From Gammaproteobacteria bacterium (GTDB taxonomy: Bacteria > Pseudomonadota > Gammaproteobacteria > SURF-13): a stretch of DNA of 64,000 nucleotides. Of the stretch, positions 438 through 28,135 are shown piece after piece. Position 1 is the stretch's first letter; the number at the start of each line of letters is the position of its first letter. The translations under genes and the position numbers were made by a program. A model generated the notes under the pieces. The model saw only the letters and a program-made list of their open reading frames with translations. It was not told the origin of the DNA and did no database searches. Where the stretch lies: NCBI GenBank assembly GCA_003599485.1, contig QZKM01000019.1, positions 9,806 to 73,805 on the forward strand, read 5' to 3'.

Positions 438-1436
438 CTAACTAAGCCCATTAGGGTGGTATAGGACGATGCGACTGCCGGTGTTTTCAAAATGAAATGG
501 CACGTGGACTAAATGGGTTAACTGACTTTTGACTTGCTGCTGGTTCTCCAGCGGAACATAAAGCAGTAGAAATCCACCGCCGCCTGCACCCAGTATTTTA
601 CCGCCCAAGGCGCCGCTCTTTAGTGCTTTCTCATAAATCTGATCAATGGTTAAGTTCGAAATCTTGTCGGAGAGGGATTTTTTATATCGCCAAGCCTCGT
701 CAAGAAGCCGTCCGAAATCATCCAGGCTATTCTCACCCCCATTGAGGATGGAGAGCGCCTCGCCAACCATTTCTTCCATGCGCCGCAATTCCGGCTCGCG
801 CTTTTTGAGATTTTCGATCTGAGTTTTGGCGACCTCGGAGGAAAAACGCGATATGCCGGTGAAGAACAGCATTAGGCTACCCTCCAGCATCTCCAGTTTG
901 GATTTCGGAAGAACCACCGGCACGACATCATAAGTGTTATCCCGTTTGAACTCGATACGATTGAATCCGCCGTGTGCCACGGATATCTGATCCTGCGATC
1001 CTACATTTTCTTTCAACACATCCTGCTCGATGTGGATGGCGTTATTAGCAAGCTCCTCCTTCGAGATATACCGGCCATTCAGAGCCATAATGGCGTTGAT
1101 GAGACCCACCGTAAACGATGAGCTGGAGCCCAGACCAGAGCGCGCCGGTAGGTCGCCATCGTGATGGATTTCGAGCCCCCTGTTGCACTTGAGCCATTCG
1201 AGCACTGCCTTGGCGGCGGGATGTTCGATCTGGGATATTTCCAGTGCATTCTCAATCTTGGAATAAACCACCCGGTATTTATGCTCGAAAAAAGGTGGCA
1301 GATACCGGCAACTGATATAGCAGTATTTATCGATGGTGGTAGCCAGCACCACGCCGCCGTTCTCACGGAACCATGCCGGATAATCCGTCCCGCCCCCGAA
1401 GAACGAAATACGAAATGGCGTCCTGCTGATGATCAT
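438..1436 (-). CDS. hddA: GHMP-family sugar kinase, HddA-like (D-glycero-alpha-D-manno-heptose-7-phosphate kinase family)
   Basis: PFRISFFGGGTD N-terminal motif, PARSGLGSSS ATP-binding motif, GGKILGAGGGG motif. Confidence 0.85.
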   Translation of the reverse strand: MIISRTPFRISFFGGGTDYPAWFRENGGVVLATTIDKYCYISCRYLPPFFEHKYRVVYSKIENALEISQIEHPAAKAVLEWLKCNRGLEIHHDGDLPARSGLGSSSSFTVGLINAIMALNGRYISKEELANNAIHIEQDVLKENVGSQDQISVAHGGFNRIEFKRDNTYDVVPVVLPKSKLEMLEGSLMLFFTGISRFSSEVAKTQIENLKKREPELRRMEEMVGEALSILNGGENSLDDFGRLLDEAWRYKKSLSDKISNLTIDQIYEKALKSGALGGKILGAGGGGFLLLYVPLENQQQVKSQLTHLVHVPFHFENTGSRIVLYHPNGLS

Positions 1437-1458
1437 GACATGCCGGCCTCCTGCTTCG

Positions 1459-2952
1459 TCATGAGTAGAGTTTTCGCTTTAGCTTGATGCGGGTCATTTC
1501 CTGTATATGCCTGACGACATCCTCTCCGAACTTCAGTCTGACCATATCAAGATAGCGGGGGTTGTTGAAGTATTTCATAAACGCCTCGTCCCGGAACTTC
1601 AACACCTCCGCCGGCCTCAGGACTTCCGTCGGCAGCGGCGTGGTTTCATAACTGTGCTGCGAGTAGCCTATCCATGAATCAGGCAGTTCCCAGCCTTTTT
1701 CCACCGCCATGCGGTAGAGCGGGGAGCCGGGATAGGCCATGGTGGAGTAAAAATTGGCAAACTCGCAGTTAGCCTCTATGGCCAGGTCCAGCGTCTCCTG
1801 CATGGACTCGTACGTATCGTCCGGCAAACCGAAAATATAGTTCCCGATTACGTAAATTCCCGCACTCTGAATTTTTCTCACGACTTCGAGAATCTGCGGC
1901 GTACCGAAGCGCCCCTTCTCTACTCCATCGCGCACGTGCTTACTGCCCGATTCGATGCCCAGCGCCAGCCAACGGAACCCGGCGCGCCGCAGCTTGTCCA
2001 GAAACTCGTCCTTGACCGTATCCACGCGCGCATACGCCCAGATATTCAGGTCATAGCCCCGTTCGATGATCCGGTCACAGATACCGAGGACATGGTTCCG
2101 GTTCAGCACAAACATCTCGTCCACAAACTTGATATTGCGCACGCCATACTTGTTTACCAGCACATCAATCTCCCTGATGACCGTGTCGGGCGACCACATA
2201 CGGTACGAGGGCTTCCCGAAGGGAGCATTGATGCAGCAAAACGAGCACTTATACGGGCAACCAAGGCTCGTATGCAGGGAGACATAAGGCGAACGCTCGT
2301 GGATGCGCTCGAAGCAATGCCAGTTGTGCGCCCGGTATTTATCCATCGGCAGCAGGTCCCAGGCCACCCCCGGCATTTCATTATCCAGGTCATCCATCAA
2401 CTCGCCCGGAGGATTGGCAACGATTCGCTCACCATCGCGATACCAGAGGCTCGGTATACCGCTGAATCTCGGTCTCGATGATTTCAGCGCGAGCGTGGCT
2501 TGCAGAATGGTCTGCGGTCCTTCCCGGTCGCACACATAGTCAATGTTTTCCTCGCGCATGGTTCTCTCTGGTAGAGCTGCGGGATGGGTACCGGTCATCA
2601 TGATCTTGTAGTTTCTATCCAATTCCTTGAGCGCGGCACAGGTTTCACCTGCGGCCGGCATGTTTTGCGTGGAAGCGGACGGCTGAAACCCATAGACCAC
2701 CATCACAATAAGCACGGGGTTGTAATTCTCCGCGACAAGCCGGGCAACACCCTGCGGACCCAGGTTGTGCGCCGGAGCGTCAATAATGGCGACAGACAGC
2801 CCCTTATTCCTTGTATAACCCGCAAACAGGCCGGCTAATGAAGGGGGCTCGATAGCCGAAAAGCTGTCGCCCAGTTCTTGATAAACGGCCGACCGGCTCC
2901 CGGGATTGATGAATAACACATCAACATCTTTTTTCACTACCATAGATTCCAC
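1459..2952 (-). CDS. Cobalamin-binding radical SAM protein (class B methyltransferase-like)
   Basis: N-terminal B12-binding-type region (PPSLAGL...GTHPAALP), CPYKCSFC cluster motif, FVDEMF, GIESGS, NYIFGLP. Confidence 0.9.
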   Translation of the reverse strand: MESMVVKKDVDVLFINPGSRSAVYQELGDSFSAIEPPSLAGLFAGYTRNKGLSVAIIDAPAHNLGPQGVARLVAENYNPVLIVMVVYGFQPSASTQNMPAAGETCAALKELDRNYKIMMTGTHPAALPERTMREENIDYVCDREGPQTILQATLALKSSRPRFSGIPSLWYRDGERIVANPPGELMDDLDNEMPGVAWDLLPMDKYRAHNWHCFERIHERSPYVSLHTSLGCPYKCSFCCINAPFGKPSYRMWSPDTVIREIDVLVNKYGVRNIKFVDEMFVLNRNHVLGICDRIIERGYDLNIWAYARVDTVKDEFLDKLRRAGFRWLALGIESGSKHVRDGVEKGRFGTPQILEVVRKIQSAGIYVIGNYIFGLPDDTYESMQETLDLAIEANCEFANFYSTMAYPGSPLYRMAVEKGWELPDSWIGYSQHSYETTPLPTEVLRPAEVLKFRDEAFMKYFNNPRYLDMVRLKFGEDVVRHIQEMTRIKLKRKLYS

Positions 2953-3008
2953 CCGATCCTCCCTCCCTTTGTCCTGATCCTCGCGTACTCGCTATTCTAA
3001 AGACATGG

Positions 3009-3713
3009 CTAGCGCCAACAGAACACTTCCCTTAAAAACTGGAAATAATACGCCGCGCCCCATTTTAGTACTTTCAGTTTTCTCTCTCCACCGATCCGTG
3101 GCGGCTCGTCACCGGGTATTTCGGTGATTTTGAGCTTTCGTTTTGCGGCACGCACGGACAGGAGCGGCTCCCAACTGATCCGGGTGCGGAATAACCTCTC
3201 TGCGGCCGCATAACCTTCGTCCTTCTCCAGCTCGAGGTCATAAACGACTTGCTTCTTGTACGCGCGGAAGATCACCATCGCATCAGTGTAATAACCGCCG
3301 TGCAACAGATTCACGGTGCGCGTAAAAAGCCAGTTCCCGAAGCCGGTAACAATGTCATCATCCTCGCTTTTCGCATCACCCAGATATCTGGAGGCAATCA
3401 CCATGTCATACCCTTCCCGCATCTTGTCAATTAGGGGAGGAATCAGTTCCGGAATGGAGTTACCGTCGGGACTGAAGGTGATGATAACGTCGCCTTCCAC
3501 ATAAGGAAGCACCTCGTTATAGGCATGCCGGAAGCCGGGGCGTTTCTGCACATATACCTCGTATCCCTGTTCCCTCGCCCATTCGATGGTGCCGTCGGTG
3601 GAACCGCCGTCGAGGACGATGATCTGGTCGCACCAGTCGCGCCTGACCCGTGGCATAATTGCCTGCATGCCGCGCAATTCATTTAGAGTTAGAACCAGTA
3701 GTGTTGTTTTCAT
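3009..3713 (-). CDS. GT2 glycosyltransferase, short DPM1/polyprenyl-phosphate glycosyltransferase-like
   Basis: TLNE, VLDGGSTDGT, FSPDGNS, MVIASRY, EPPRIGGERKL motifs; 234 aa. Confidence 0.85.
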   Translation of the reverse strand: MKTTLLVLTLNELRGMQAIMPRVRRDWCDQIIVLDGGSTDGTIEWAREQGYEVYVQKRPGFRHAYNEVLPYVEGDVIITFSPDGNSIPELIPPLIDKMREGYDMVIASRYLGDAKSEDDDIVTGFGNWLFTRTVNLLHGGYYTDAMVIFRAYKKQVVYDLELEKDEGYAAAERLFRTRISWEPLLSVRAAKRKLKITEIPGDEPPRIGGERKLKVLKWGAAYYFQFLREVFCWR

Positions 3714-3751
3714 TGGTTGATTGACTCAATGCAGGGTAGACGTCATCCCGT

Positions 3752-4546
3752 CTATTTTGAGAGCCTCCTGATCACCATCTTCAGCGCCACGAGCAGAACC
3801 ACAGCCAGCGATATGGCCAGCATGTTCTTTACCAGTGGGTAGGCGTTTCCGTCGAGAGCGATCCCTCTGAGGGAGGAACCTATGGCTGCGAACAATATGC
3901 TTAGCGGCAAAATGGAGAGCATGGTAGTGACGATATAACGGCTGAACCTGATCCTCGTCAACCCAAAGAAATAGCTGGAAGGCCCGAACGGGAAAATCGG
4001 GTTGAGACGGGCAAACGCCACCGCTTTCCACTCTTTGCGCTGTATCTCTTCCTTGAGCCAGGTCCAGGCGGAATGGCTGAACTTCCTGTTGAGGTAATCC
4101 GAGCCCAGATGCCGTGCGGCCAGAAAAGCGCATGCCGAACCCGCGCCGGCGCCGATTACCGTCAGAGCACCGCCCCAATAAGCGCCCCATATCAGCCCGG
4201 CGCCCAAATTCAACGGCAAGGTCGGAACCAGGCACACCACCATAATGGCATAAACGACGATAAAACCGGCAGGGGCGATAACAGGATGGGATTTAAGGAA
4301 GAAAACAATACTATCTGGCGCAAAATAGCCCTGCTGCCGCAGGATAAACAGCAGGATCGCCAGCCCGAAGAGAGCAGCCGCCAGCATAAAGCGCTTGCGC
4401 CGGATAACCTTCCGGACAACGTCCAGAAACGAGAAGATACCTCTTTTCCCGTTACGCTGTGATTCAAATACCGATGCGTCTTGCACATCTGCGGGATCAA
4501 ACAGGACGTCGCCGCTGTCTTTGTTTTCTTGGGGTTCGAGCTTCAT
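3752..4546 (-). CDS. DedA/TVP38/TMEM64 (VTT domain) membrane protein
   Basis: LPLNLGAGLIWGAYWGG, FLAARHLG, ARLNPIFPF, YFFGLTRIRF motifs. Start placed at 4546, where ATGA overlaps the NUDIX stop. Confidence 0.85.
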   Translation of the reverse strand: MKLEPQENKDSGDVLFDPADVQDASVFESQRNGKRGIFSFLDVVRKVIRRKRFMLAAALFGLAILLFILRQQGYFAPDSIVFFLKSHPVIAPAGFIVVYAIMVVCLVPTLPLNLGAGLIWGAYWGGALTVIGAGAGSACAFLAARHLGSDYLNRKFSHSAWTWLKEEIQRKEWKAVAFARLNPIFPFGPSSYFFGLTRIRFSRYIVTTMLSILPLSILFAAIGSSLRGIALDGNAYPLVKNMLAISLAVVLLVALKMVIRRLSK

Positions 4547-5121
4547 CTCAGCATGTTTTGATATTGAAAATACGCAATGAGCGTGCATGGGTCCTGGATT
4601 TCACCAGTATCATGCAGGGCAGCGACTTGCGCCGGTTCAAACCAACGGAATTCCTTGTGGCCGAATTCATCGCCGCTGAAGGGCCTGATTGCCTGGCAGC
4701 GCCGCGCTGCAAACAGATGCACGCGCGCCGCGAGAATTCCTGGTTCCGGTGCAATGACCCCCAGTGACTCGATGTCGGCATCCGTACACGACAAGCCGGT
4801 TTCCTCCTCCAGTTCACGGATCGCGGAACTACGATCCGGCTCACCGGGATCAACAAAACCTCTTGGAACTTCCCACAGATGGCGCTGAATGGCGTGCCGG
4901 TAGATGTGCAGCAGCCCTAATTTTCCATCAACGATGGGCAGCACGGCTATCCCGGTGATGAGATCGCCTATTTTGATCTTCGGTGCAACGACCAGATAGT
5001 CATGGATGCTTTCACCGTTCGCGCCCTCCACGTCATCCAGAAATACCTCGAAGCGGCTGTTTTCACAGGCCAGTCTCCGTTGGCGCAGTGCGTGAAAATC
5101 TTTTTCGTTGCCATGAGCCAT
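4543..5121 (-). CDS. NUDIX hydrolase (NDP-sugar/ADP-ribose pyrophosphatase-like)
   Basis: Nudix box GFVDPGEPDRSSAIRELEEETG. Start placed at ATG 5121 (MAHGNEK), just after the upstream stop at 5129. Confidence 0.88.
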   Translation of the reverse strand: MAHGNEKDFHALRQRRLACENSRFEVFLDDVEGANGESIHDYLVVAPKIKIGDLITGIAVLPIVDGKLGLLHIYRHAIQRHLWEVPRGFVDPGEPDRSSAIRELEEETGLSCTDADIESLGVIAPEPGILAARVHLFAARRCQAIRPFSGDEFGHKEFRWFEPAQVAALHDTGEIQDPCTLIAYFQYQNMLR

Positions 5122-5128
5122 ATGTACT

Positions 5129-6337
5129 CTAGTCGTGTGCTGTCCTATATCGTTCAACAAGCAATTCGGAGAAAGCAAAGGCGCTGGTAAACGCTGGAGA
5201 AATAGCGTTGAGCACATGCAGCGACGAAGGCGTGCTCTCAACGACAAAATCCATTTCGAGCTTTTGCGTGCGCAGATTGACCAACTGTGGCCGGATACCC
5301 ACCTTCCCGGAAGGGAGGAAATCATCCGCCATGATATCAGGAACAAGCCGGCGCGTGGCTTCAATGAAATGCGTTTTGCTGTATTTTCCGATTTCGCTGT
5401 GCACCATGCGCCGGAAACTCCTCTGATTGCGCAGATAAAGGCGGGCGAGATGCCAGCCGACCCTCATTCCCTCTCCAAGCCGGATGCCTTGGAGCACGCC
5501 GTAATTTTCCCGCCCGAAGGCCGGTATGGCCGTGGGTCCGGCATAGACATCACCGTTGATGACGCGCGTCAGATGCACACCCAGAAAAGGCAGCGATATA
5601 TCCGGCACCGGATAGATATTGCTTCGGACAAGATTCACTCTTTCCTTGCGTAACTTGTAATAAAGGCCCTTGAACGGCAGCAACGTATAATCGCGGCATA
5701 ATCCGAATTTCCTCGCGATCAGATCCGCGCTGGCCCCGGCGCAATTGAACACATATCCATAGGAATACTTGCCGGAGGAGGTAAAAAGGCATTTGTCTTT
5801 TTCAGCGACATCCGTCACTGTCCGGTTCAGGGCGAAGTGAACACCGGATTGCGTCAGGAGTTCGCGCAGCTTTTCAAGAACCGACCAGCTGTCGATAACC
5901 GCAGTATCCGGGCTGTATATGCCAACACGGTAAGGATTGGCATAAGGCTCGATCTCCTTGACCCCCTTTTCGTCCAGTTTTTCGGCGCGAATGCCGCTGT
6001 CCCGCGCATTCTGAAGCAGGCGTTCGACGGTGGGAATATCCTGCTCGCGCGTGGCGATAATTACTTTGCCGGAACGCCGGTACGGAATGCCGTGCTCATC
6101 AGCGAACTCCATCATCCGGAAAGCGCCTTTGGAACAGACTTTGGCCTTGAGCGTGTCCGCACCATAGTATATGCCGGAATGGAGCACGCCACTGTTGCGT
6201 CCGCTCGCGTGCCTGCCGAGCGCCGGCTCCTTTTCCAGCACTGCAACGCTGGCTTTCGGAAAGTGTTTCTTCAGTTCAAAAGCAGTGGTCAGACCGATAA
6301 TGCCCGCACCAATGATGACAAAATCAGAAGAGGACAC
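5129..6337 (-). CDS. lhgO: FAD-dependent oxidoreductase, L-2-hydroxyglutarate oxidase (LhgO) family
   Basis: IIGAGIIG, ASGRNSGVLHSGIYY, IYPVPD..PFLGVH, GIRPQ, LNAISPAFTS. Confidence 0.8.
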   Translation of the reverse strand: MSSSDFVIIGAGIIGLTTAFELKKHFPKASVAVLEKEPALGRHASGRNSGVLHSGIYYGADTLKAKVCSKGAFRMMEFADEHGIPYRRSGKVIIATREQDIPTVERLLQNARDSGIRAEKLDEKGVKEIEPYANPYRVGIYSPDTAVIDSWSVLEKLRELLTQSGVHFALNRTVTDVAEKDKCLFTSSGKYSYGYVFNCAGASADLIARKFGLCRDYTLLPFKGLYYKLRKERVNLVRSNIYPVPDISLPFLGVHLTRVINGDVYAGPTAIPAFGRENYGVLQGIRLGEGMRVGWHLARLYLRNQRSFRRMVHSEIGKYSKTHFIEATRRLVPDIMADDFLPSGKVGIRPQLVNLRTQKLEMDFVVESTPSSLHVLNAISPAFTSAFAFSELLVERYRTAHD

Positions 6338-6361
6338 AGGACAGATGCATCGTGGAGCGCG

Positions 6362-7315
6362 TTAAATGTTGCCGTATCTGGTGTTGCAGATCATGGTATA
6401 ACCCTTGATCAGCTCCTGAATGCCGAAATCGAGCGAGCACACCGGCTTGAACCCTGTGCCCTCGATCTTGGCGTTGGAGACAATGTAGTTGCGTTGATCC
6501 GGGTCCTTGCCAACGGGTGCATCGAGAAAAACAAATTCCGGCAGATGCTTTTGGATCGCCTGGCACAGTTCTTTTTTGGATACGTTGGCATCCGAGAGTC
6601 CGACATTGTAAATCTGGCCTTTCATCCTGCCGTAATTATTGATGGCGTGCAGAAACACGCGCGCCACGTCCCGAACGTGGATATAGTTGCGCTTGAACTG
6701 GCTCTCAAACAGCACCACGAAGCGGTCGTAGACCGCGCGATAAGTGAAATCATTAACCAGCAGGTCAATGCGCATGCGCGGCGACATCCCGAACACCGTC
6801 GCCAGCCGGAAACTGATGGCGTTCGGGTGCTGCATGAGCGCCTTTTCGATTTCAACCTTTTCTATCGCATACTGGGAAATGGGCCGCAGCGGGGATTCCT
6901 CAGTGCAGAAATTGTTCTTATCGCCCGTTCCATACGCGCTGTTTGTCGTGGGCATGAGCACAATCTGATCCTTGCTCAGCAACTTCAACATCATCGTGAT
7001 GGCGTCATGATTGGTCGTGGTAGCGCCGACGGGGTCCTTGCTGCACAGCGGCGCGCCCACGAGTGCCGCAAGCGGAATAATAATATCGGCGTTTTTTATC
7101 AGCGGCCGCATGGTGCTCTCCACGCGGATGTCTCCGCAGACCACACTGAAATTGGGATGGTGGCAGACATGTGCCAGACTGTTCTGGCCAAACATAAAGT
7201 TGTCCAGTACAGTGACTTTGTGTCCCGCGTCCAGCAGTTCCGGAACCATGGTCGAACCCAGATAGCCCGCCCCGCCTGTAACCAGAATATTGTGCCTCAT
7301 ATCTTTTCCTTTCAA
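6362..7315 (-). CDS. NAD-dependent epimerase/dehydratase (extended SDR)
   Basis: TGGAGYLG, YAIEK (YxxxK), RLATVFGMSPRMRIDLLVNDF. Confidence 0.9.
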   Translation of the reverse strand: MKGKDMRHNILVTGGAGYLGSTMVPELLDAGHKVTVLDNFMFGQNSLAHVCHHPNFSVVCGDIRVESTMRPLIKNADIIIPLAALVGAPLCSKDPVGATTTNHDAITMMLKLLSKDQIVLMPTTNSAYGTGDKNNFCTEESPLRPISQYAIEKVEIEKALMQHPNAISFRLATVFGMSPRMRIDLLVNDFTYRAVYDRFVVLFESQFKRNYIHVRDVARVFLHAINNYGRMKGQIYNVGLSDANVSKKELCQAIQKHLPEFVFLDAPVGKDPDQRNYIVSNAKIEGTGFKPVCSLDFGIQELIKGYTMICNTRYGNI

Positions 7316-7345
7316 GTTCTAAGCTGTGATGACTGCATGAAATCC

Positions 7346-8053
7346 CTACGCGCGCGGCAATAGAGCGGCGGCGCGCCGGTAATCCTCCGGTATACCGATA
7401 TCAATGAACCGGCCAAAAGACGGGAAACCATACATACGTTTGCCAGCCACCAGCATGCGCGGATACAGTTGGTCCTCGATCGAAACCGGCTCATTAGATT
7501 CCGGAACCATGCCGGCAAAGGCGTACCTCTCCGCCAGGTAGACCCCCCCGTTGATCAACGCCCGGCCTGAAGTTCGCGCGCGATTATCAAAAGCCGTTAT
7601 CTTTCCATCCTTATCAATCTCTACGCTGGCATAACGGCTGTTGGCCTCCACTTCGCGCAAGGCGATGGTCACCTCTGCGCGCCTGTCCTGGTGATAACGG
7701 CGCATCAGCGCCAGATCAACTTCAAAAAAGGTATCGCCGTTCATAACTAAAAACGAATCTGACCCACGCAAGCCCTCCAGTGCCAGCAGCAATCCGCCAC
7801 CTGTCCCGCGCGGCTGCTCTTCCACGGCATACACCACTTCGGCCTCCTTGTGCCGCGCGCTAAAATATTCCTCGATGATTTGGCACTTGTAACCGACCGA
7901 CAGTACAAAACGGCTGACACCCTGGCCGGCCCAGTAGTTGAGCAGATATTCCAAGAAAGGACGGCCGTTGATGGGCGCCATCGGTTTGGGCACATCCGGC
8001 ACTACCGCCTTGAGTCGGCTGCCCACCCCACCGGCGAGAATAATGGCCTCCAT
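7346..8053 (-). CDS. hddC: Sugar-1-phosphate nucleotidyltransferase, HddC-like guanylyltransferase
   Basis: ILAGGVGSRL, PKPMAPINGRPFL, GTGG, VMNGDT, INGGVY, FIDIGIPEDY. Confidence 0.8.
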   Translation of the reverse strand: MEAIILAGGVGSRLKAVVPDVPKPMAPINGRPFLEYLLNYWAGQGVSRFVLSVGYKCQIIEEYFSARHKEAEVVYAVEEQPRGTGGGLLLALEGLRGSDSFLVMNGDTFFEVDLALMRRYHQDRRAEVTIALREVEANSRYASVEIDKDGKITAFDNRARTSGRALINGGVYLAERYAFAGMVPESNEPVSIEDQLYPRMLVAGKRMYGFPSFGRFIDIGIPEDYRRAAALLPRA

Positions 8054-8064
8054 CGGGAGTGGAT

Positions 8065-9234
8065 TTAATCCACCGCTTTTGTCAGCACTTCATGAAAACG
8101 CATGATCTGCGGCGTGATATCGTGCGGATGGTTGCCGACAAAAAATCCGCGGTCATGGGCGGTATTGGCGTTCGTGATATGCCCCACGCATTCATAGTCA
8201 AAATATTTGATAACGTCATGGCGCAGGAAATTCCCACCCGTGATGATGCGATAACCGATATCCGCCTGTTTCATGGCATTCATGACCTTCTTACGGTCAA
8301 TGTTAAATTCGGGGTTGAGAACCACCGTAAAGGCGAACCAGGAGCTCTTGCCGTTCTCGCGCTGAATGATAAAGCGCTCGTCGCTCTTGAACAAATCTAC
8401 AAATACACTGGCATTGCGCCGCCGCGTCTCCACCATCACATCCAGTTTCTTCAACTGCTCCACGCCGATCGCGCCACTCAGCTCAAGTGGTCTGGCATTG
8501 TAGCCCGGCAGAATGAAGCGGTATGCCTCGAAAAAATCGTCGTCACGCTTCTCGTAAATCGGGCTGTCCGCCGGGACATCGCGCGTCCAGCCGTGCGCGC
8601 GGATAGATCGCGCAAGGTGATACAGCCCCGTATCGTTCGTCACTAGCACACCTCCTTCCATGGTCGAGATGTGATGGGAGAAAAACGTGCTGAAAGTACC
8701 GATGTCGCCGAACGTTCCACATGGTTTTCCACCGAGCTCCGCGCCCATAGACTCGCAGTTGTCCTCGAACAGATAAAGGCCGTGCTTGTCGCAAAACTTG
8801 CGCAGGACATCGAGCGCACAGGGATTGCCCAGAATGCTGACCGCGACAACCATTCGTGTACTGGATGTCAGCGCCTTTTCAAGCTGCGATACGTCCATGT
8901 TCAGCGTATCAAGCTCCACATCCAGGAACTTGAGCTTCAGACCATACTGCTGAAGCGGATAATAGGTCGTGGCCCAAGAGATCGAAGGGACAATCACCTC
9001 GTCGCCCCGTTTAAGCGGGCGCTCCTTCTTGTAAAAGAGCGCAGCGATGCCGACCAGATTCGCGGTGGAACCGGAGCTGACCATGAGCGCATGCTTTACG
9101 CCGAATTTCTGGGCAAAGGCCTCTTCGAAACGCTGAACGTTCTCCCCCATGGTGAAGCGGCCGCCAGCGATGACGCGCTGGATGGCCTGAATTTCCTCAT
9201 TGCCCCAGGAACTGCTGGCTAGTTCGTAGTACAT
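8065..9234 (-). CDS. colD: PLP-dependent GDP-4-keto-6-deoxy-D-mannose 3-dehydratase (ColD type)
   Basis: DegT-family fold with His at the usual Schiff-base Lys position (TFFSHHISTMEGG). ColD-like N-terminus (YELASSSWG), EDNCESMGA, RAHGWTR, PGYNARPLE. Lacks the Cys-rich Fe-S motif of DdhC/E1. Start placed at 9234. Confidence 0.85.
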   Translation of the reverse strand: MYYELASSSWGNEEIQAIQRVIAGGRFTMGENVQRFEEAFAQKFGVKHALMVSSGSTANLVGIAALFYKKERPLKRGDEVIVPSISWATTYYPLQQYGLKLKFLDVELDTLNMDVSQLEKALTSSTRMVVAVSILGNPCALDVLRKFCDKHGLYLFEDNCESMGAELGGKPCGTFGDIGTFSTFFSHHISTMEGGVLVTNDTGLYHLARSIRAHGWTRDVPADSPIYEKRDDDFFEAYRFILPGYNARPLELSGAIGVEQLKKLDVMVETRRRNASVFVDLFKSDERFIIQRENGKSSWFAFTVVLNPEFNIDRKKVMNAMKQADIGYRIITGGNFLRHDVIKYFDYECVGHITNANTAHDRGFFVGNHPHDITPQIMRFHEVLTKAVD

Positions 9235-9253
9235 GCTTCCCCTTTGCAAAAAA

Positions 9254-10291
9254 TTATTTTTTAACCATCTCCCTGATGACGCCAGCGACCTTCTCTGCAT
9301 CAGGATAGTAAAATTGCTCCAGCGTATAGCCTGCCGGCGTTGGAATGTCTGGAAGACCTACGCGGCGCACCGGCGATTTAAGGTAATCGAACCACTTTTC
9401 CGCGGCGAGACATCCGATCTCGGCACACACGCCTCCCATTGCCCAGCCGGTGTCCACCACCAATATCTTTCCGGTTTTCTTCAGGGATTCAGCGATGATC
9501 TGCTCGTCAAGCGGCTTGAGCGTCCGCAGATCAATGATCTCGCTCTCAATGCCATCGGCGGCGAGTTTGTTGGCCGCCTGCAAGGCGACTTCCAGCGCAT
9601 GCGAAGCGCCGACGATTGTGATATCGCTGCCGCGGCGGCGATAAATTCCTTTTCCCAGCGGCACGGTATAAAAACCTTCGGGTACCGTCCCGTCTTTTTT
9701 CATCAGCCAGCGATGCTCGAAGATCAGCACCGGGTTGTTGTCGGCGATCGCTGCCAGCATAAGTCCTTTGGCGTCGTATGGCGTGCTCGGCATCACGATT
9801 TTCAGGCCCGGCACCCCGAGCAGAAGTCCCTGAATGGACTGGGAATGCTGCGCGCCGGAACCCCATCCACGACCGATAGCAGCCCACACCACCATCGGCA
9901 CCGTGGTCTGGCCGTTGTCCATATAGTGGTACTTGGACGCGTGCGTCACCAGCTGATTGAAGGCGAGCAGAATGAAGTCAGGGCGGTTATGCATATACAC
10001 CGGCCGCATGCCGTTCATGGCCGCGCCAGTACAGACGCCCATCATTCCTTCTTCGGAGAGGGGGGTGTCGAACACGCGTGCGGCGCCGTATTTTTCCTGC
10101 AACCCCCTGGTGGTTCCAAACATGGCGCCGGGGTCATCCACGCCCTGCCCCAGAACGAACACGCCGGGGTCATGTGCCAGCGCGATGTCGAGCGCCTCAT
10201 TGATTGCTTTGGCGTAACCGAGAGATCTACCCGTGCCCGGGTCGGGCGCCTCATACACGAGCGAATTGACTAGACCTTCATCCCACGGCAT
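9254..10291 (-). CDS. ThDP-dependent 2-oxoacid dehydrogenase E1 beta subunit-like / transketolase C-terminal protein
   Basis: VFDTPLSEEG, GSGAQHSQ, PSTPYDAKGL, IFEHRWL, IDLRTLKPLD. Confidence 0.9.
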   Translation of the reverse strand: MPWDEGLVNSLVYEAPDPGTGRSLGYAKAINEALDIALAHDPGVFVLGQGVDDPGAMFGTTRGLQEKYGAARVFDTPLSEEGMMGVCTGAAMNGMRPVYMHNRPDFILLAFNQLVTHASKYHYMDNGQTTVPMVVWAAIGRGWGSGAQHSQSIQGLLLGVPGLKIVMPSTPYDAKGLMLAAIADNNPVLIFEHRWLMKKDGTVPEGFYTVPLGKGIYRRRGSDITIVGASHALEVALQAANKLAADGIESEIIDLRTLKPLDEQIIAESLKKTGKILVVDTGWAMGGVCAEIGCLAAEKWFDYLKSPVRRVGLPDIPTPAGYTLEQFYYPDAEKVAGVIREMVKK

Positions 10292-10312
10292 GACGTTTGT
10301 TCTCAGGGGTTA

Positions 10313-11338
10313 TCAATCGCTGTAAATATGGGCATACAAATCCTTTTCTTCCGGATTCGGGCTCGCCAGGGCGTAATCAAACGCCTCAATCACTTCCAGC
10401 ATGATTTCCGCATGCATGTGTTCGCGCTGTGCGATTGTGATTAAACCCGCATCCGCCAGAAACCGGAAATAGGTCTCGATGGGGCACACTTCCTCCCAAG
10501 CCTTCAATTCCGCAGTATCTCGATAGCCCGTGTGGCTGTCATCGCCCGCGCCACCGTGCGCCCTGAAACGGTACACTGGGGCCTCGATAAACGTAGCCCC
10601 ACCGCCTTCACGTGCGCGTTTGACTGCTTCACGAACGGCTTCATAGACAGCTAGTACGTTGGCGCCATCCACCCGCACACTGGCTATCCCATAACCCGCG
10701 GCCCATTTATATATCTCACGCGGTGGCTGCCGGGTTGCCAACGGCGACTGAACCGAATAGAAATTGTTCTCACAGAAGAAAATCACTGGAAGCTTTTTAA
10801 GAGCCGCGAAATTGAGGCTTTCGGAAGTAACACCCTCTTCCGTCCCCGCATCGCCGAAAAACACGACCGATACCCGGTCAAGCCCCTGGAGCTGCGCGGT
10901 AAGCGCGGAACCGGCAGCGATCGGAATGGCGCCGGCGACGATAGCGGAGGTTCCCGCCATGCCGACGCTCTTATCAATCAGATGCATGGAACCGCCGCGC
11001 GAGCCAACGCAACCGTTGATGCGGCAGTGCATCTCGCACAGCATCGCCTTGAGATCACCGCTCTTGGCGAGATAATTGCCGTGCGTGCGGTGGCTGCTGT
11101 ACAGCAGGTCAGTCTTGCGCAACGCCGCGCAACAGCCCACCGAGGTCGCCTCCTGCCCGATAACCAGATGGATCGGTGTTTTCATCTGGTCTTGGTGGTA
11201 GCGCCGCTCGATCTCCTCTTCGATCAAGCGTATGCGCAACATATCTCGAAACAGGCGTACCAGAAATTCATCCTGGAACCGGCCCCGGGCAGCACCCCAT
11301 CCCTGATAACCGTTCTCGGAATATTCGTACCTGATCAT
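10313..11338 (-). CDS. ThDP-dependent E1 alpha subunit-like protein
   Basis: HLVIGQEA, HRTHG, RGGSMH, ThDP-binding GDAGTEEG...ENNFYSV. Confidence 0.9.
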   Translation of the reverse strand: MIRYEYSENGYQGWGAARGRFQDEFLVRLFRDMLRIRLIEEEIERRYHQDQMKTPIHLVIGQEATSVGCCAALRKTDLLYSSHRTHGNYLAKSGDLKAMLCEMHCRINGCVGSRGGSMHLIDKSVGMAGTSAIVAGAIPIAAGSALTAQLQGLDRVSVVFFGDAGTEEGVTSESLNFAALKKLPVIFFCENNFYSVQSPLATRQPPREIYKWAAGYGIASVRVDGANVLAVYEAVREAVKRAREGGGATFIEAPVYRFRAHGGAGDDSHTGYRDTAELKAWEEVCPIETYFRFLADAGLITIAQREHMHAEIMLEVIEAFDYALASPNPEEKDLYAHIYSD

Positions 11339-11447
11339 GCTGTTACAACCGGAAAAAAGCCATTACTCTAACTGGAGAATGCTTTAAAAACGGAAATATC
11401 ACACGATCGGGATACTGGCCGCGGACCGCTCCGGCCGCCAAGCCGGG

Positions 11448-12473
11448 TTAGTACTTGTACTCAATCCCCACCCGGTTGCAGCCCGAGCAGATAGGTATGG
11501 TCTTTCTTCCATGTTCTCTATGAGTCTTCCTCATCCCCACCACCTCAGGCCCATTCCATACCTTTAATATGTCGGTTTCCGCCGGCTTGAACGTCCCATA
11601 GCCCTTGACGTTGCTCCATGTCACGTAATCACAGCAGGGCAACATGTCGCCGTTCCAGTTGACGGTGAGCACCTTCCACAACCAGTCGCAAGGTATGTGC
11701 GCCGCAGAGCGGACAACAGGCTGAATGTCCTCTTTGTCTTCCATGCCGCGGGGGTTGCCAGGACGGATAGTGAACAGAAACCCGTGTTGACGGGCAAAAT
11801 CCCTGAACTGCTCAATCTCATGGGTATTGTGTTTGTAGCGGATGTAATCAATCAGCACGATCATCCGGGCCTTTCTCTCTTTGATCCTCCGGGCCAACAT
11901 GCTCAGATTGCTCTTGATTACCTCCACATTGCCGAGACGATGTTGCACTTGGTGGACCTCGTTTGTAAAACCGGAGACGTGCACCTTGATCTGGTCAAGA
12001 TCGTTACTCAATATTTTCTCTATATTGGCCTCGTTCAACAAAATACCATTCGATGAAAGAATCGTCGCGACGTTACATTCCTTGGCAACTCTCAGAACAT
12101 CGTCCAAGTACTGATAAATAAATGGCTCGCCGTTTACATAAGGTACGGCCATCAGCAGTGTGTCCTTGGTCTGCCGGATAATATTCTCGTATATCGGAAG
12201 TTTCATGACTCCTTTTGGAATGAAACCGTCCGATTTACCGGGATTCAGATCATAGATCTTCCCGTTCTTGTCGCGGCAGAAAACGCAGCTTTCATTGCAG
12301 TTATTGGACAGCTCAAAGTTGATGAGAAACGGCGTCCGCCCGGATCGGTTGAGCTTGAGCCAGTAGGCCACGTAGCAATAAGCGGTATTGGCGATCTTGC
12401 GCAGAGACAGCTTTCCCTTGCGCAATAGCAGAAAAATTAAACTGATTTTCAGGAAAGAGTATTTTGTTAGCAT
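11448..12473 (-). CDS. Radical SAM protein with C-terminal twitch/SPASM domain
   Basis: CNESCVFC motif, NGEPF; C-terminal CDWLW...GDMLPCCD...CSGC. Confidence 0.88.
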   Translation of the reverse strand: MLTKYSFLKISLIFLLLRKGKLSLRKIANTAYCYVAYWLKLNRSGRTPFLINFELSNNCNESCVFCRDKNGKIYDLNPGKSDGFIPKGVMKLPIYENIIRQTKDTLLMAVPYVNGEPFIYQYLDDVLRVAKECNVATILSSNGILLNEANIEKILSNDLDQIKVHVSGFTNEVHQVQHRLGNVEVIKSNLSMLARRIKERKARMIVLIDYIRYKHNTHEIEQFRDFARQHGFLFTIRPGNPRGMEDKEDIQPVVRSAAHIPCDWLWKVLTVNWNGDMLPCCDYVTWSNVKGYGTFKPAETDILKVWNGPEVVGMRKTHREHGRKTIPICSGCNRVGIEYKY

Positions 12474-12494
12474 GCGGCACCCCTGTTCATTTCG

Positions 12495-13424
12495 TCAATC
12501 AAACCCTATTTTCCGGTCGATAATGTAGCTGGGGCGTCCCTTAACCTGTTCGTAAATCCTCCCCAAGTATACACCAAGGATCCCGATGGTAAACAAGATC
12601 ACTCCGCTCAGAAACAGGATGGTCGCCATAATGGCCGTCCAACCCGGCAGATTGATTCCCATAAGCTTGGTCAGGATAACATAGGCAAGCGCCAGGAATG
12701 AAATGAGCGCGACAACCAATCCAAGTATGAGTGCGAAATAAAGCGGCGCGGCGGAGAACGAAGTAATGCCGCGATTGAATTCCTTATAGGGGTTAGTGCT
12801 CTTGAATAATCCAAACTTGGATTCACCAGCCGCCCTCGCATCACGTTCATAATGCACCATGGCCTGCCTGAAGCCGATCCATCTGGACAAACCCCGCAGA
12901 TAAGGGTCGTGTTCATTCAGCTTCAGTATTTCCGTTACAGCCCTTCTCGACAAGAGTTTGAAGTCCCCGGCGTTTTCGTAGAAATCAATGTCCGAAAAGG
13001 CATTGATCATTTTATACGCAAGCATGGTCAGCCACATTTTCATCAAGCTTTCCCCATACCGCTTGGTGCGGACGGTATGAACAACCTCCACACCCTCATG
13101 CCATTTCCGCACCAGATCAGGGATCAGTTCGGGCGGATCCTGCAGGTCGGCGTCCATATACACAACGGCGTCCCCTCTTGCCTCAGCCAACCCGGCAATC
13201 ACACAGGGTGTTACTCCGAAACGGCGTGACATGCTGATGATTTTAATGTTGTTGTTCGCCGCGCGCAGCGACTGCAATATCTCCAATGATCCGTCCGTTG
13301 AGGCATCATTCACAAATATGAGTTCGTGCTCGCCAAGGTCCTCTAGAACAGCCGAGGCGCGACGGACGAGTTCGGGAATGACCTTTTCCTCATTTCTGAA
13401 GGAAAATACGACGGAGATAAGCAT
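12495..13424 (-). CDS. GT2 undecaprenyl-phosphate glycosyltransferase, GtrB/ArnC-like
   Basis: FRNEE, VNDASTDGS, MDADLQDPPE, GDFKLLSR, two C-terminal TM helices, YLGRIYEQVKGRPSYII. Confidence 0.9.
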   Translation of the reverse strand: MLISVVFSFRNEEKVIPELVRRASAVLEDLGEHELIFVNDASTDGSLEILQSLRAANNNIKIISMSRRFGVTPCVIAGLAEARGDAVVYMDADLQDPPELIPDLVRKWHEGVEVVHTVRTKRYGESLMKMWLTMLAYKMINAFSDIDFYENAGDFKLLSRRAVTEILKLNEHDPYLRGLSRWIGFRQAMVHYERDARAAGESKFGLFKSTNPYKEFNRGITSFSAAPLYFALILGLVVALISFLALAYVILTKLMGINLPGWTAIMATILFLSGVILFTIGILGVYLGRIYEQVKGRPSYIIDRKIGFD

Positions 13425-13627
13425 GTTCCTTGCTCCTCAGATCGGAAGTAGCGGGTTGATCGCCCGACTCCCGGTCACAAATCCAGGATAGGCACTGATT
13501 TTCGAAGCTGTCAAGGTAACACCGGTTTCAATGAGCAAACCCGGCGCACGGCGTACCGGGCGTTCTGGCAGTATGAAAAATCGGACCAAAGTTAACCGGT
13601 CAACAGGACTTCTGAGTGAATAAAAAC

Positions 13628-15424: not shown

Positions 15425-15680
15425 CAGACCTGCCCCACATTTTTTATTAAATCATGCTGATGAGTTAATGGGGTAGGATTGCCCGGGCTGGTTGTCAGGA
15501 ACCGCGCTCGATGATCCTCACGACATTCTCCGTCCGGCACTGCTGCGATTTTTGACATTCTACGGACGCAATATTCCCGCAGGACTCGCTGACCCTGTGT
15601 CCGTGCCACTAGGCGTGTATGTGTAACCCATGGTGATGCATTTGTGACAATTTAAATATTTTAGACACCCCTCCTCAATA

Positions 15681-16667
15681 TCATTCTCGTTCATGGATTG
15701 AGAAATGTGGTTTCCGGTAGATGATGGTCATACCTGTCACGATAAGATCGAATTTATCATGCTTACCCAACAACATAGAAGCGAGGACTGGATTTTCCAA
15801 CAAACACTTGATAGCCCGAGGTTCAATTATCAGAGCTACATATTCACGGTGGAATCCTGCCTTCTCCAGTGCCTCCAAATATTGAGTTGGGCGCAAATAG
15901 CTGAAAAGCCCATTTTCAATCCATGTTCGACCATCGTGCTCCGAATGGCTAAACGTTCCCAATGTATCTATGTACCTTGTATACGCTGAACGATCGAGCA
16001 CTAGATGATTATATCCAGCGGCAATGGCGTCGTACCCTGAAATATGGTCACCACCCCAACAATACCAGAGTGGTCCAAAGGTCGCATAGACAATGCCCCC
16101 TGGCCTGAGCAAGCGATGAAATTCAAGTAAAACATCTGACAAATTTCGTACGTGCTCAAACACAGCATCGGAGCCGACAACATCAAGCGATGAATCCGAA
16201 AAATGTTCTATGTGTGACAGATCCGACTGCGTAAATTCCAGCATTACATGAGGGTATTTTTGGGCGACCTGATGGTGCAATAGAGACCATGCACGGTCAT
16301 ACCTGAAGTAGTCGGTTCCTATTACCAATTCTGGGCTGTACGGTAACCAAGATATGATATCGCGACCCGTCCCACAGCCAGCAATCAAAAGACGTTGCCC
16401 TCGAAGTGGAAATATCTTGTTAACGCGACGTCTGTGGACCTCAAAATCGTTTCCTCGCTGCCCCCACAACCATTGATCAACAGGAAAACGGCACATGGTC
16501 TGGTATCGCCGACCCATCCATTCATTAATAAGGAATTTGTAGATAGGATATACAAACCGCCGTATGGGCCGCTTGACAAGGATCTCCAGTTGGTCGGGCA
16601 ATGGCAGGACGTATTGCGCGGGCGTACGGTCATCGGCCGGAAGAATATTACGAGGCACTACTGGCAC
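15681..16667 (-). CDS. Class I SAM-dependent methyltransferase
   Basis: LIAGCGTGRD, SDAVFEHV, LLRPGG. Start placed at GTG 16667, preceded by GGAGG. Visibly AT-richer than neighbours. Confidence 0.85.
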   Translation of the reverse strand: MPVVPRNILPADDRTPAQYVLPLPDQLEILVKRPIRRFVYPIYKFLINEWMGRRYQTMCRFPVDQWLWGQRGNDFEVHRRRVNKIFPLRGQRLLIAGCGTGRDIISWLPYSPELVIGTDYFRYDRAWSLLHHQVAQKYPHVMLEFTQSDLSHIEHFSDSSLDVVGSDAVFEHVRNLSDVLLEFHRLLRPGGIVYATFGPLWYCWGGDHISGYDAIAAGYNHLVLDRSAYTRYIDTLGTFSHSEHDGRTWIENGLFSYLRPTQYLEALEKAGFHREYVALIIEPRAIKCLLENPVLASMLLGKHDKFDLIVTGMTIIYRKPHFSIHERE

Positions 16668-16979
16668 GATTGCCGTCCTCCAGTCAGTTCCTGGAACTGT
16701 AATACCAACATTACGAACAATCCACACCAGTACAGGACCAGCCATTGACCTACAACTGAACGAGCTGAATGCCACCGCATCCGGATTCCAGCACTCGCAC
16801 AGGATCGGAGCGTCCGAAGCGGGTATGTTGCAAGATGAGTCGTCATATCCGGTTCAGCAGGGCGGAACTTCAGGCAGGGATGCATCGTTACATCGGCCGG
16901 CTCATGGCCCTGAACTTTGATCTCTTGTTTCCAGGCCTCGGTGACCAAGGCCGCTTTCATCCGCTGCCGCTCCCTCTGG

Positions 16980-26616: not shown

Positions 26617-26622
26617 TGCCGT

Positions 26623-27648: not shown

Positions 27649-27663
27649 GAGTATTCCTTGGGG

Positions 27664-28131: not shown

Positions 28132-28135
28132 GGCA

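Follow-up and report, generated by a model that had tools for sequence, protein, structure and literature searches.

A putative GDP-heptose cassette built around a B12-domain radical SAM enzyme, and its optional twitch-type companion, in a bacterial surface-glycan locus

Why should two radical S-adenosylmethionine (SAM) enzymes of different classes share one block of sugar genes? The question is posed by a 64,000-nucleotide stretch of contig QZKM01000019.1 (hereafter the window; positions 9,806 to 73,805 of the contig in assembly GCA_003599485.1, a Gammaproteobacteria bacterium), in which a B12-binding-domain radical SAM enzyme (P0001, 497 amino acids (aa), 1459-2952) and a twitch-type radical SAM enzyme (P0002, 341 aa, 11448-12473), both encoded on the minus strand, enclose a set of sugar genes. 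A sequence-only reading had proposed that the two bracket a single module, P0001 as a class B methylase and P0002 as a twitch/SPASM enzyme of the BtrN/NeoN kind, and that radical chemistry best known from antibiotic pathways is applied here to a cell-surface glycan. Both genes are present with their motifs, SLGCPYKCSFCC (CPYKCSFC) in P0001 and CNESCVFC in P0002, and the Pfam domains agree with the assignments. The genes between them encode sugar enzymes, as judged by Pfam and NCBIfam scans and by sequence matches in the PDB, and all belong to one co-directional block: every gene from 438 to 19776 is on the minus strand, the intergenic gaps are at most 56 nucleotides (nt) across 438-11338, widen to 109 nt ahead of the twitch gene and narrow to 21 nt between it and the neighbouring glycosyltransferase gene, and the spacing is operon-like.

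The explanation of this arrangement that we favour overall, with modest confidence and from homology and gene order, is a heptose cassette containing a radical step, to which a dependent twitch-type tailoring enzyme would have been added. That the chemistry serves a cell-surface glycan is borne out by the surroundings, those of a genuine glycan locus. The first 41.7 kb of the window form a single long minus-strand glycan locus that runs on along the contig for another 9.8 kb beyond the window's left edge (more than 50 kb in total), and it holds Wzx, several glycosyltransferases (GTs), GT-C-like proteins and a Wzy-like protein. Both radical SAM enzymes have their orthologs almost only in glycan or nucleotide-sugar contexts, not mostly outside glycan loci. 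As judged from their sequences, neither P0001 nor P0002 seems to belong to any characterised family, and the literature searched held no publication on the cassette, on either family or on the coupling of a GtrB-like transferase with a radical SAM enzyme.

Distribution of the cassette and of its twitch companion

Genes 438-11338 constitute a conserved, horizontally spread cassette, of which P0001 is a core, fixed member. Step for step, its enzymes correspond to a presumed tailoring pathway for a guanosine diphosphate (GDP)-heptose. A scan of one genome per species returned 515 confirmed matches to P0001, and the loci of the best 80 (61-89% identity) were compared in two independent ways, by tblastn with the window's proteins and by de novo clustering of all open reading frames (ORFs). 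The two comparisons agree on the cassette. The B12-domain radical SAM gene was recovered in 73 of these loci and the GHMP kinase, almost always the next gene, in 57; next in frequency come a Cj1427-like short-chain dehydrogenase/reductase (SDR; 45 loci, 62-91% identity), a DegT-family enzyme and a nucleotidyltransferase (42 each), the beta and alpha subunits of a thiamine diphosphate (ThDP)-dependent E1 component (31 and 30), an L-2-hydroxyglutarate (L-2-HG)-oxidase-like protein (14) and a Nudix hydrolase (12), the last standing at the cassette end and having products of about 190 aa.

Among the best 80, the closest relatives come from Sulfuricaulis and many from Betaproteobacteria; Legionella maceachernii and other Legionellales, a Coxiella-like endosymbiont, Simkania, Omnitrophota, Bdellovibrionales, Patescibacteria and Rhodospirillaceae are also represented. 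The database holds more than 8000 homologs of P0001, the best 120 of which are 76-91% identical to it, and identity across phyla is 61-91%. Within the window's phylum, Pseudomonadota, 12 of the 400 genomes sampled carry the family (3%). Carriers that can be cultured include Herbaspirillum lusitanum, Azospirillum lipoferum 4B (on plasmid AZO_p6), A. ramasamyi, A. argentinense and Solidesulfovibrio magneticus RS-1.

Around the shared core, composition varies. Three genes recurrent elsewhere are missing from the window's cassette: a GmhA-like isomerase (inside the cassette in 15 other loci), a GmhB-like phosphatase (11) and an Fcl-like epimerase/reductase (17), the labels having been read from representative cluster sequences and not from a hidden Markov model (HMM) scan. 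A short family 2 glycosyltransferase (GT2) lies directly upstream of the B12-domain gene in 11 loci, and a DedA protein and the short GT2 occur together in L001, L002, L007, L008 and L092. In 17-19 loci a split transketolase substitutes for the E1 pair. The DegT protein of these loci is only about 31% identical, and it is therefore taken as an ordinary aminotransferase there and not as a ColD-type enzyme. Judged by homology, a ThDP enzyme able to move a C2 unit is nearly always present beside the B12-domain enzyme. The marine Rhodospirillaceae loci L070-L083 show a variant of their own, in which an IlvD/Edd-type dehydratase, a 3-hydroxyisobutyrate-dehydrogenase-like protein, a D-2-hydroxyacid dehydrogenase and an extra SDR (again labelled by reading cluster sequences) sit around the B12-domain enzyme and the split transketolase; through these additions the ThDP enzyme may be provided with another donor, a keto acid or a ketose.

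The twitch enzyme keeps other company. Twelve contexts of P0002 homologs (41-76% identity) were inspected, and all are glycan loci. Its constant partner is a polyprenyl-phosphate GT2 of the GtrB/ArnC/PgfS type, encoded in the window at 12495-13424 (minus strand; NCBIfam PgfS 252.6 and ArnC 149.5 bits, both below cut-off) and carrying two C-terminal transmembrane (TM) helices at residues 232-283. Of the 11 complete contexts (L087 is incomplete), 10 have this gene next to the twitch gene; the exception is L099, where it lies inside the neighbouring cassette. Identities of the GT2 (46-80%) run roughly in step with those of the twitch enzyme. Beyond the GT2 the window encodes a 598-aa polytopic membrane protein, GT-C-like (13628-15424, minus strand; PMT_2 21.5 bits, short of the cut-off of 26.1), with about 10 TM segments and a soluble C-terminal part; its orthologs (39-40% identity) adjoin the twitch gene in L006 and L093. 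The companions of the twitch gene are thus the GT2 and GT-C genes on the flank away from the cassette, to which it is an add-on.

Co-occurrence of the two radical SAM enzymes is one-sided. No P0002 homolog was found in the 80 loci of the best P0001 relatives, nor, at E <= 1e-30, in any of 50 whole cassette-carrying genomes. The P0002 family was met once in 400 genomes of the window's phylum, at 30% identity, and in none of 400 Patescibacteria besides the known carrier; a metagenome scan with a single twitch sequence as query gave two loci only. Conversely, each of the three twitch genomes searched genome-wide (Patescibacteria, Omnitrophota, Rhodospirillales) carries a P0001 ortholog at 57-61% identity, in the first two on the twitch gene's own contig. 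Set against the 3% background in the phylum, this argues that the pairing is more than chance. In no fewer than 6 of the 12 contexts cassette and twitch gene are immediate neighbours, namely the window, L092 (B12-domain enzyme 89% identical), L095 (Rhodospirillales, with the transketolase variant), L099 (in divergent orientation to a 63% ortholog) and two metagenome contigs judged by Pfam architecture. In L092 the GT2-twitch pair has entered the cassette at a different point, between the Nudix and DedA genes.

The twitch enzyme implies the cassette and not the reverse: with the cassette enzyme in 3 of 3 twitch genomes and P0002 in 0 of 50 cassette genomes, it is a rare, optional and dependent accessory. 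Of the idea that two enzymes bracket one module, the sugar genes in between are real and the functional link holds, every twitch genome that could be tested having the cassette as well. The equal standing of the two partners is lost, since P0001 is core and P0002 is missing from all 50 other cassette genomes and all 80 loci.

Twitch-GT2 pairs are also met in a different setting. In L094 (Omnitrophota) and L097 the pair lies in a nest of further radical SAM genes, 3-5 of which encode B12-domain enzymes. The B12-domain paralogs there are only about 25% identical to P0001, and these nests could be heavily radical-tailored glycan or lipid pathways.

Candidate chemistry of the cassette and its accessory

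The early steps of the pathway can be proposed with the support of homology. Formation of GDP-D-glycero-D-manno-heptose would come first and would involve the GHMP sugar kinase (438-1436, minus strand; Pfam GHMP_kinases_N/C), whose best NCBIfam match is the D-glycero-D-manno-heptose-7-phosphate 1-kinase HddA (138.5 bits against a cut-off of 600), and the sugar-1-phosphate nucleotidyltransferase (7346-8053, minus strand), which resembles the GDP-heptose-type enzyme HddC (190.7 bits, cut-off 300). A GmhA-like gene is present in the window at 26020-26616, outside the cassette. In the second step, the SDR (6362-7315, minus strand; 378.9 bits over its full length to PDB 6VO6/6VO8) would act as a GDP-heptose C4-dehydrogenase. 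Cj1427 itself is a ping-pong enzyme with tightly held NADH that oxidises C4 of GDP-heptose and reduces alpha-ketoglutarate to L-2-HG (PMC10680097); by analogy, alpha-ketoglutarate would re-oxidise the bound NADH of the SDR. The gene next to it (5129-6337, minus strand) encodes a flavin adenine dinucleotide (FAD)-dependent oxidase of the L-2-HG oxidase type (NCBIfam NF008726, 343.7 bits, above the cut-off of 299), which would return L-2-HG to alpha-ketoglutarate. The pairing of an oxidase above its curated cut-off with the Cj1427-like SDR, recurring in 14 loci, suggests built-in alpha-ketoglutarate/L-2-HG recycling for the ping-pong dehydrogenase; in the Cj1427 study L-2-HG has a single mention, as reduction product (PMC10680097).

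Removal of the C3 hydroxyl group is proposed as the third step, catalysed by a pyridoxal/pyridoxamine phosphate-dependent GDP-4-keto-sugar 3-dehydratase of the ColD type (DegT family; 8065-9300, minus strand; 434.9 bits to E. coli O55 ColD, 2GMS). Its motif FSHHISTMEGG aligns to YSHHIATMEGG in ColD, with the histidine kept where aminotransferases have the Schiff-base lysine. The alternative labels of aminotransferase and RfbH-type enzyme were dropped, as the score to ColD and the kept histidine favour the ColD type. Precedent exists in the C3-dehydratase of Campylobacter jejuni HS:5, which converts the product of Cj1427 into GDP-D-glycero-4-keto-3-deoxy-heptose (PMC10680097). Up to this point the cassette resembles heptose tailoring for the capsule of C. 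jejuni, with kinase, guanylyltransferase, C4-dehydrogenase SDR and ColD-type 3-dehydratase in the same logical order. The systems differ in that a dedicated L-2-HG oxidase accompanies the SDR here, that kinase and transferase fall under their equivalog cut-offs here, and that C. jejuni finishes with cupin epimerases and C4-reductases whereas the 4-keto-3-deoxy intermediate would here pass to an E1 pair and a radical SAM enzyme.

The E1 pair consists of an orphan ThDP-binding alpha subunit (10313-11338, minus strand; E1_dh 222 bits; pyruvate dehydrogenase E1 alpha 274.5 bits, short of the cut-off of 393.85) and an orphan pyruvate-dehydrogenase-type beta subunit (9254-10291, minus strand; Transket_pyr and Transketolase_C; E1 beta 294.4 bits, short of 321). 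No E2 or E3 gene was seen in the annotated window up to 30.6 kb and in the 9.8 kb to its left, the part from 30.6 to 41.7 kb being unannotated. In the fourth step the pair may place a pyruvate-derived acetyl group on the C4 ketone, to give a tertiary alcohol. Such a transfer of the C2 unit of pyruvate to C4 of a 4-keto sugar has been proposed for AviB1/AviB2 and Pau11/Pau12, and paulomycin production is lost on knockout of pau11 (PMC4425429). The likeness, drawn from gene context and not from sequence comparison, lies in an orphan E1 alpha/beta pair, with no E2/E3, in a deoxysugar pathway that makes a 4-keto sugar. AviB1/AviB2 and Pau11/Pau12 belong to actinomycete antibiotic pathways and to hexoses or pentoses, and possibly act after glycosyl transfer; the pair of the window belongs to a Gram-negative surface glycan and, presumably, to a GDP-heptose, and is replaced by split transketolase in some loci. 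The longest ORFs of E1 beta and the ColD-type enzyme share 47 nt (9254-9300), and the true starts are probably further downstream.

The fifth step, and the centre of the proposal, would be a radical reaction of P0001 on the branched GDP-sugar. P0001 unites an N-terminal B12-binding (Rossmann) domain (PF02310, 44.6 bits against a cut-off of 32.1) with a Radical_SAM domain (69.2 bits), in which C232, C236 and C239, invariant across 32 homologs, provide the CX3CX2C motif of the radical SAM cluster. In the NCBIfam scan no curated cut-off is reached. The best models are HpnJ (166.7 bits; TIGR03471, cut-off 577.6) and BchE (129.2 bits; TIGR02026, cut-off 481.35), both of which outscore the methylase families. 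With scores far under both cut-offs, the P0001 family is distinct from HpnJ and BchE. It shares with them the two-domain architecture and differs in its likely substrate, theirs being a hopanoid glycoside (HpnJ, hopanoid cyclitol ether) and a porphyrin (BchE, ring E of bacteriochlorophyll). Non-methylating chemistry is described for BchE, OxsB, ThnL and HpnJ (PMC12931638), and HpnJ and BchE have each been linked to the forming of a five-membered carbocycle (PMC9092360, PMC12931638).

We propose that P0001 could act as a carbocyclase, joining C7 of GDP-3-deoxy-4-C-acetyl-heptose to the branch carbonyl. The 5'-deoxyadenosyl radical would take the hydrogen from C7, and the C7 radical would attack the carbonyl. 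The product would contain the cyclopentane C4-C5-C6-C7-C8 and be a 4,8-cyclo-3,9-dideoxy-nonose with tertiary hydroxyls at C4 and C8, a sugar of the caryose type, whose biosynthesis is described as "currently unknown" (PMC9092360). C4 oxidation, C3 deoxygenation, a C2 branch and a radical enzyme, with no ketoreductase for the branch, are what caryose requires and what the window's cassette offers; this match, and the five-membered carbocycles made by both of the nearest HMM families, are the grounds on which ring closure is favoured. Ring closure of this non-methylating and possibly cobalamin-free kind is, tentatively, the most likely single mechanism for P0001. C-methylation carries a smaller probability, and so, to the same extent, does an AprD4-like dehydration or other rearrangement. 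The proposal in its widest form, in which the cassette is a route to carbocyclic higher sugars of the caryose type, P0001 a cobalamin-independent carbocyclase and the twitch enzyme the first of the radical SAM class devoted to tailoring a sugar that is bound to, or destined for, polyprenyl phosphate, must be regarded as doubtful. Caryophyllose was set aside as the product: for its branch, single-chain ThDP enzymes like YerE that use longer keto acids as donors have been proposed (PMC9306805), and not E1 pairs.

A non-methylating P0001 is in keeping with what the carrier genomes reveal of cobalamin. The window's genome (1.69 Mb, 96% complete, and small for a free-living member of its phylum) returned neither CobS, the MetH cap domain, a cobalamin riboswitch nor BtuB in marker searches of the whole genome, and its one PF02310 domain is that of P0001 itself. 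The same four markers are missing in Simkania, the Coxiella-like endosymbiont, L. maceachernii and two carriers among Patescibacteria. The P0001 ortholog is the sole PF02310 match in Simkania, L. maceachernii and one of the Patescibacteria genomes; the Coxiella-like endosymbiont has two extra weak matches below cut-off, and in the other Patescibacteria genome a second match exceeds it. The searches were positive in control genomes, and in the Sulfuricaulis carrier all markers but CobS were positive (MetH cap domain and riboswitch above cut-off, BtuB below). Over the carriers, 16 of 50 lack the riboswitch. A methylcobalamin-dependent methylase is hard to reconcile with such marker-free hosts, and the absence of recognisable cobalamin metabolism in the window's genome weakens the C-methyltransferase assignment in favour of non-methylating chemistry. 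The argument is circumstantial, for metagenome-assembled genomes are incomplete and scavenging is possible.

The route would end, in a sixth step, with the short soluble GT2 of the Dpm1/AglJ-like polyprenyl-phosphate hexose transferase type (3009-3713, minus strand; Pfam GT2; NCBIfam matches to AglJ and dolichyl-phosphate hexose transferase, both below cut-off; no TM helix), which could load the finished sugar onto polyprenyl phosphate. The lipid-linked sugar would then be flipped, for which the DedA/VTT membrane protein (3752-4546, minus strand; Pfam VTT_dom 78.4 bits; about 6 hydrophobic segments) is a candidate flippase of polyprenyl phosphate or the lipid-sugar. Transfer in the periplasm to the polymer made by Wzx/Wzy may fall to the GT-C-like proteins, the 598-aa protein and one of 569 aa encoded left of the window.

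What the twitch enzyme could add is constrained by its cysteines and its fold. P0002 (Radical_SAM 35.9 bits; SPASM 38.4 bits, cut-off 21.5) has eight invariant cysteines in an alignment of 45 homologs, C59/C63/C66 of the radical SAM cluster and C262, C280, C281, C329 and C332 in the C-terminal pattern C-x17-CC-x47-C-x2-C. The seven-cysteine SPASM motif CX9-15GX4C...CX2CX5CX3C...C is lacking, its CX2CX5CX3C block being shrunk to CX2C. With five C-terminal cysteines, a pattern fitting one auxiliary cluster as in BtrN, P0002 is best described as twitch-type and not full SPASM; of the earlier twitch/SPASM label the first half stands. BtrN aligns to residues 257-338 (phmmer E = 0.005, 16% identity). 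The P0002 model is confident (predicted local distance difference test score (pLDDT) 92), and its nearest solved folds are SuiB, BlsE, DesII, BtrN, SkfB, PqqE, EpeE and SpeY, a mixture of sugar-acting and peptide-acting enzymes, with a TM-score on target of 0.72-0.75 for BtrN. The proposed kinship to BtrN and NeoN accordingly narrows to a fold class held in common with BtrN, BlsE and DesII; NeoN was not in the comparison. Likeness to BtrN-type enzymes (BtrN, DesII, BlsE, NeoN) comprises the CX3CX2C core and the C-terminal domain with a one-cluster cysteine pattern (fold E 1e-11 to 1e-12). Differences are an identity of 12-17%, an extra N-terminal two-helix segment and the coupling to a membrane-bound polyprenyl-phosphate GT2, a pairing for which the literature searched held no description in any characterised twitch enzyme.

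P0002 reaches no NCBIfam model cut-off, and a sugar substrate is favoured on account of the glycan context, the five-cysteine tail and the lack, in the genes called around it, of a conserved gene for a precursor peptide or for ribosomally synthesised and post-translationally modified peptide (RiPP) processing. The enzyme would most probably abstract a carbinol hydrogen of the cassette sugar, either as GDP-sugar or already on its lipid carrier, with dehydrogenation or epimerisation as the outcome, as known from BtrN, DesII and NeoN. Together with the GtrB-like GT2 and the 598-aa GT-C-like protein it would form a second lipid-linked route that installs a variant of the sugar, which would explain the presence of two polyprenyl-phosphate GT2s in the window and in L092; two GT-C-like proteins are also found in the window's locus. 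The unit recalls the Gtr (GtrA/GtrB/GtrC) and Arn systems in its GtrB/ArnC-like GT2, with two C-terminal TM helices, beside a polytopic GT-C-like protein, and departs from them in having a radical SAM enzyme as part of the unit. No GtrA-type flippase was detected by Pfam and NCBIfam among the main minus-strand ORFs of at least 80 aa in 1-20 kb, where the DedA/VTT protein is present. The sugar of the twitch-GT2 unit is probably not glucose or 4-amino-4-deoxy-L-arabinose (Ara4N).

Several points weigh against the heptose cassette with radical ring closure and dependent twitch tailoring. Its substrates and the order of its steps are taken from homology and synteny only, and the HddA, HddC and E1 scores all lie under equivalog cut-offs. 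The structures 6VO6 and 6VO8 are presumed to be those of Cj1427. Some P0001 orthologs have no ThDP enzyme nearby (the A. lipoferum plasmid, L002 of the Legionellales), and no cassette ortholog lies within 8-10 kb of the twitch gene in L004, L088, L093 and L097, the remainder of these genomes being outside that view. A cobalamin riboswitch is present in 34 of 50 carriers, for which cobalamin use is thus possible, and small or host-associated genomes might scavenge cobalamin by unrecognised routes. Of the two HMMs nearest to P0001, that of BchE describes an enzyme believed to require B12. Lastly, the AlphaFold model of P0001 is poor (pLDDT 68).

Rival assignments of the two radical SAM enzymes

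The alternative that survives best is the one from which the question started. P0001 would be a cobalamin-dependent class B C-methyltransferase, like GenK, GenD1 or Fom3, acting on an unactivated carbon in a nucleoside diphosphate (NDP)-sugar, and the twitch enzyme would oxidise or epimerise the same sugar. The combination of B12-binding and Radical_SAM domains speaks for it, most characterised proteins of this architecture being methylases (PMC12931638), as do Foldseek matches to TsrM, TokK, CysS and MgmA, the riboswitch in the majority of carriers just mentioned, and the presence of PhpK-type and other methylase models among the weaker NCBIfam matches. These models are far from reached, however: P0001 scores 104.7 bits against a cut-off of 600 for PhpK, 92.3 against 575 for Sden_1168, 54.7 against 650 for HpnR, 46 against 700 for KedN5 and 48.9 against 500 for tryptophan 2-C-methyltransferase. 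HpnJ and BchE score higher, the best solved relative, AprD4, binds no cobalamin, and the window's genome and five other carriers show none of the four cobalamin markers. The structural model does not arbitrate. Foldseek with P0001 at its pLDDT of 68 places TsrM, AprD4, TokK, OxsB, MgmA and CysS about equal, and the model is too poor to separate methylase from non-methylase. The class B methylase inference is weakened by all this, and we consider it unlikely, though a serious contender for the function of P0001.

Slightly less probable is that P0001 acts in the manner of AprD4, as a radical 1,2-diol dehydratase or rearranging enzyme on the exocyclic C6-C7 diol of the heptose; the deoxy-aldehyde or ketone so formed would be the acceptor of the ThDP enzyme, and the chain would be lengthened to a linear nonose in place of being branched at C4. 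The usual acceptors of ThDP carboligases are aldehydes, and an E1 pair or split transketolase stands beside the enzyme in most loci. AprD4, from apramycin biosynthesis, is the best solved relative of P0001 by sequence (74.3 bits, about 18% identity) and one of its top fold matches; it has a sugar substrate and a B12-like Rossmann domain, and independence from cobalamin agrees with the markers missing from the window's genome and the five other carriers. A 2026 review places AprD4 and ArsL homologs inside the similarity network of B12-radical-SAM enzymes, yet they bind no cobalamin (PMC12931638). Against this, P0001 attains only 85 bits with the AprD4 model (NF033070, cut-off 500), below HpnJ, BchE, ApyD and PhpK, and the window's cassette has no AprD3-like dedicated partner reductase. 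Moreover, the Cj1427-like and ColD-like pair would already yield a 4-keto acceptor, by the logic of the yersiniose, avilamycin and paulomycin pathways.

A third alternative denies the connection of the two enzymes altogether. The radical SAM genes would be neighbours by accident, and the twitch, GT2 and GT-C genes an independent side-chain unit of the Gtr type that uses a common uridine diphosphate (UDP)-hexose. It finds support in the GT2, and not the cassette, being the twitch enzyme's constant partner, in the lack of a twitch gene from all 50 cassette genomes and in the contexts L004, L006, L088 and L093, which show no cassette within 8-10 kb. The idea is weakened by whole-genome co-occurrence (3 of 3 twitch genomes with the cassette enzyme, against 3% in the background) and by the repeated adjacency (at least 6 of 12 contexts), which spans different lineages and both the E1 and the transketolase variant of the cassette and places the pair at different positions of the same cassette in the window and in L092. 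We regard accidental neighbourhood as improbable. That P0002 matures peptides or proteins, like the majority of SPASM enzymes, is very improbable: SuiB, SkfB, PqqE and EpeE are among its best sequence and fold matches and weak NCBIfam matches point to cofactor and peptide maturases, but BlsE, DesII and BtrN rank equally high in the fold search, the C-terminal cysteines are five against the usual seven of peptide SPASM enzymes, the called genes of the 12 contexts include no conserved gene for a precursor peptide, protease or RiPP recognition, and all 12 are glycan loci with a co-varying GT2.

Taken as a whole, the interpretation from sequence was right in part. Radical glycan chemistry stands; the single bracketed module, the class B methylase and the BtrN/NeoN-like enzyme do not stand in the form first given.

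The wider locus and the meaning of the cassette

The remaining gene of the cassette region is the Nudix hydrolase (4543-5130, minus strand; Pfam NUDIX). Its longest ORF, 4543-5364, runs 235 nt into the oxidase gene, and a later start near 5130 is probable, since homologous Nudix products have about 190 aa.

Sites found in a promoter and terminator scan were no commoner than in shuffled sequence. The 203-nt interval that precedes the GT2-twitch genes contains a sigma-70-like site (10/12 matches, 13514-13485) and, directly after the GT-C gene, a terminator-like hairpin (13601-13584). Both are given little weight; they may mark a boundary of transcription units upstream of the GT2-twitch genes.

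Left of the window (L091/L096, C3:761-10176), the locus encodes the 569-aa polytopic membrane protein, which has no Pfam match and whose orthologs follow the GHMP kinase in L092 (74% identity) and L007 and also occur in L093 (52%). The same stretch encodes a GT4, an Alg14/Alg13-like pair, a carbamoyltransferase, a GT2, an SDR and an aldolase-SDR fusion.

A second block of the heptose type lies apart from the cassette at 24261-29386. It contains an HddA-like GHMP kinase (26623-27648), the GmhA-like isomerase noted above, an SDR, a nucleotidyltransferase, an RmlC-like cupin (27664-28131) and an NDP-sugar C-methyltransferase (28136-29386), and O-methyltransferases adjoin it. The locus probably makes two different modified heptoses.

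To our knowledge, the tailoring of sugars by radical SAM enzymes has been described almost exclusively for antibiotic pathways. In this locus two of them form part of a pathway to a cell-envelope glycan, which points to a sugar chemistry not described before for surface glycans. P0001 is among the most conserved proteins of a fast-evolving type of locus, its identity staying at 60% or more all the way from Patescibacteria and Chlamydiae to the Beta-, Gamma- and Alphaproteobacteria, and its carriers include Legionella, Coxiella-like endosymbionts, Herbaspirillum and Azospirillum. The pathway is directly testable, since published assays and substrates exist for the first three steps. Solving it would reveal a new class of surface antigen and possibly the origin of the carbocyclic sugars of lipopolysaccharide, which the literature has left open; it would show whether a "B12-binding" radical SAM family works without cobalamin, and how a second radical enzyme gets recruited as an optional module with a lipid-carrier transferase of its own. 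The carbocyclase, if true, would be a new class of radical SAM reaction in glycan biosynthesis.

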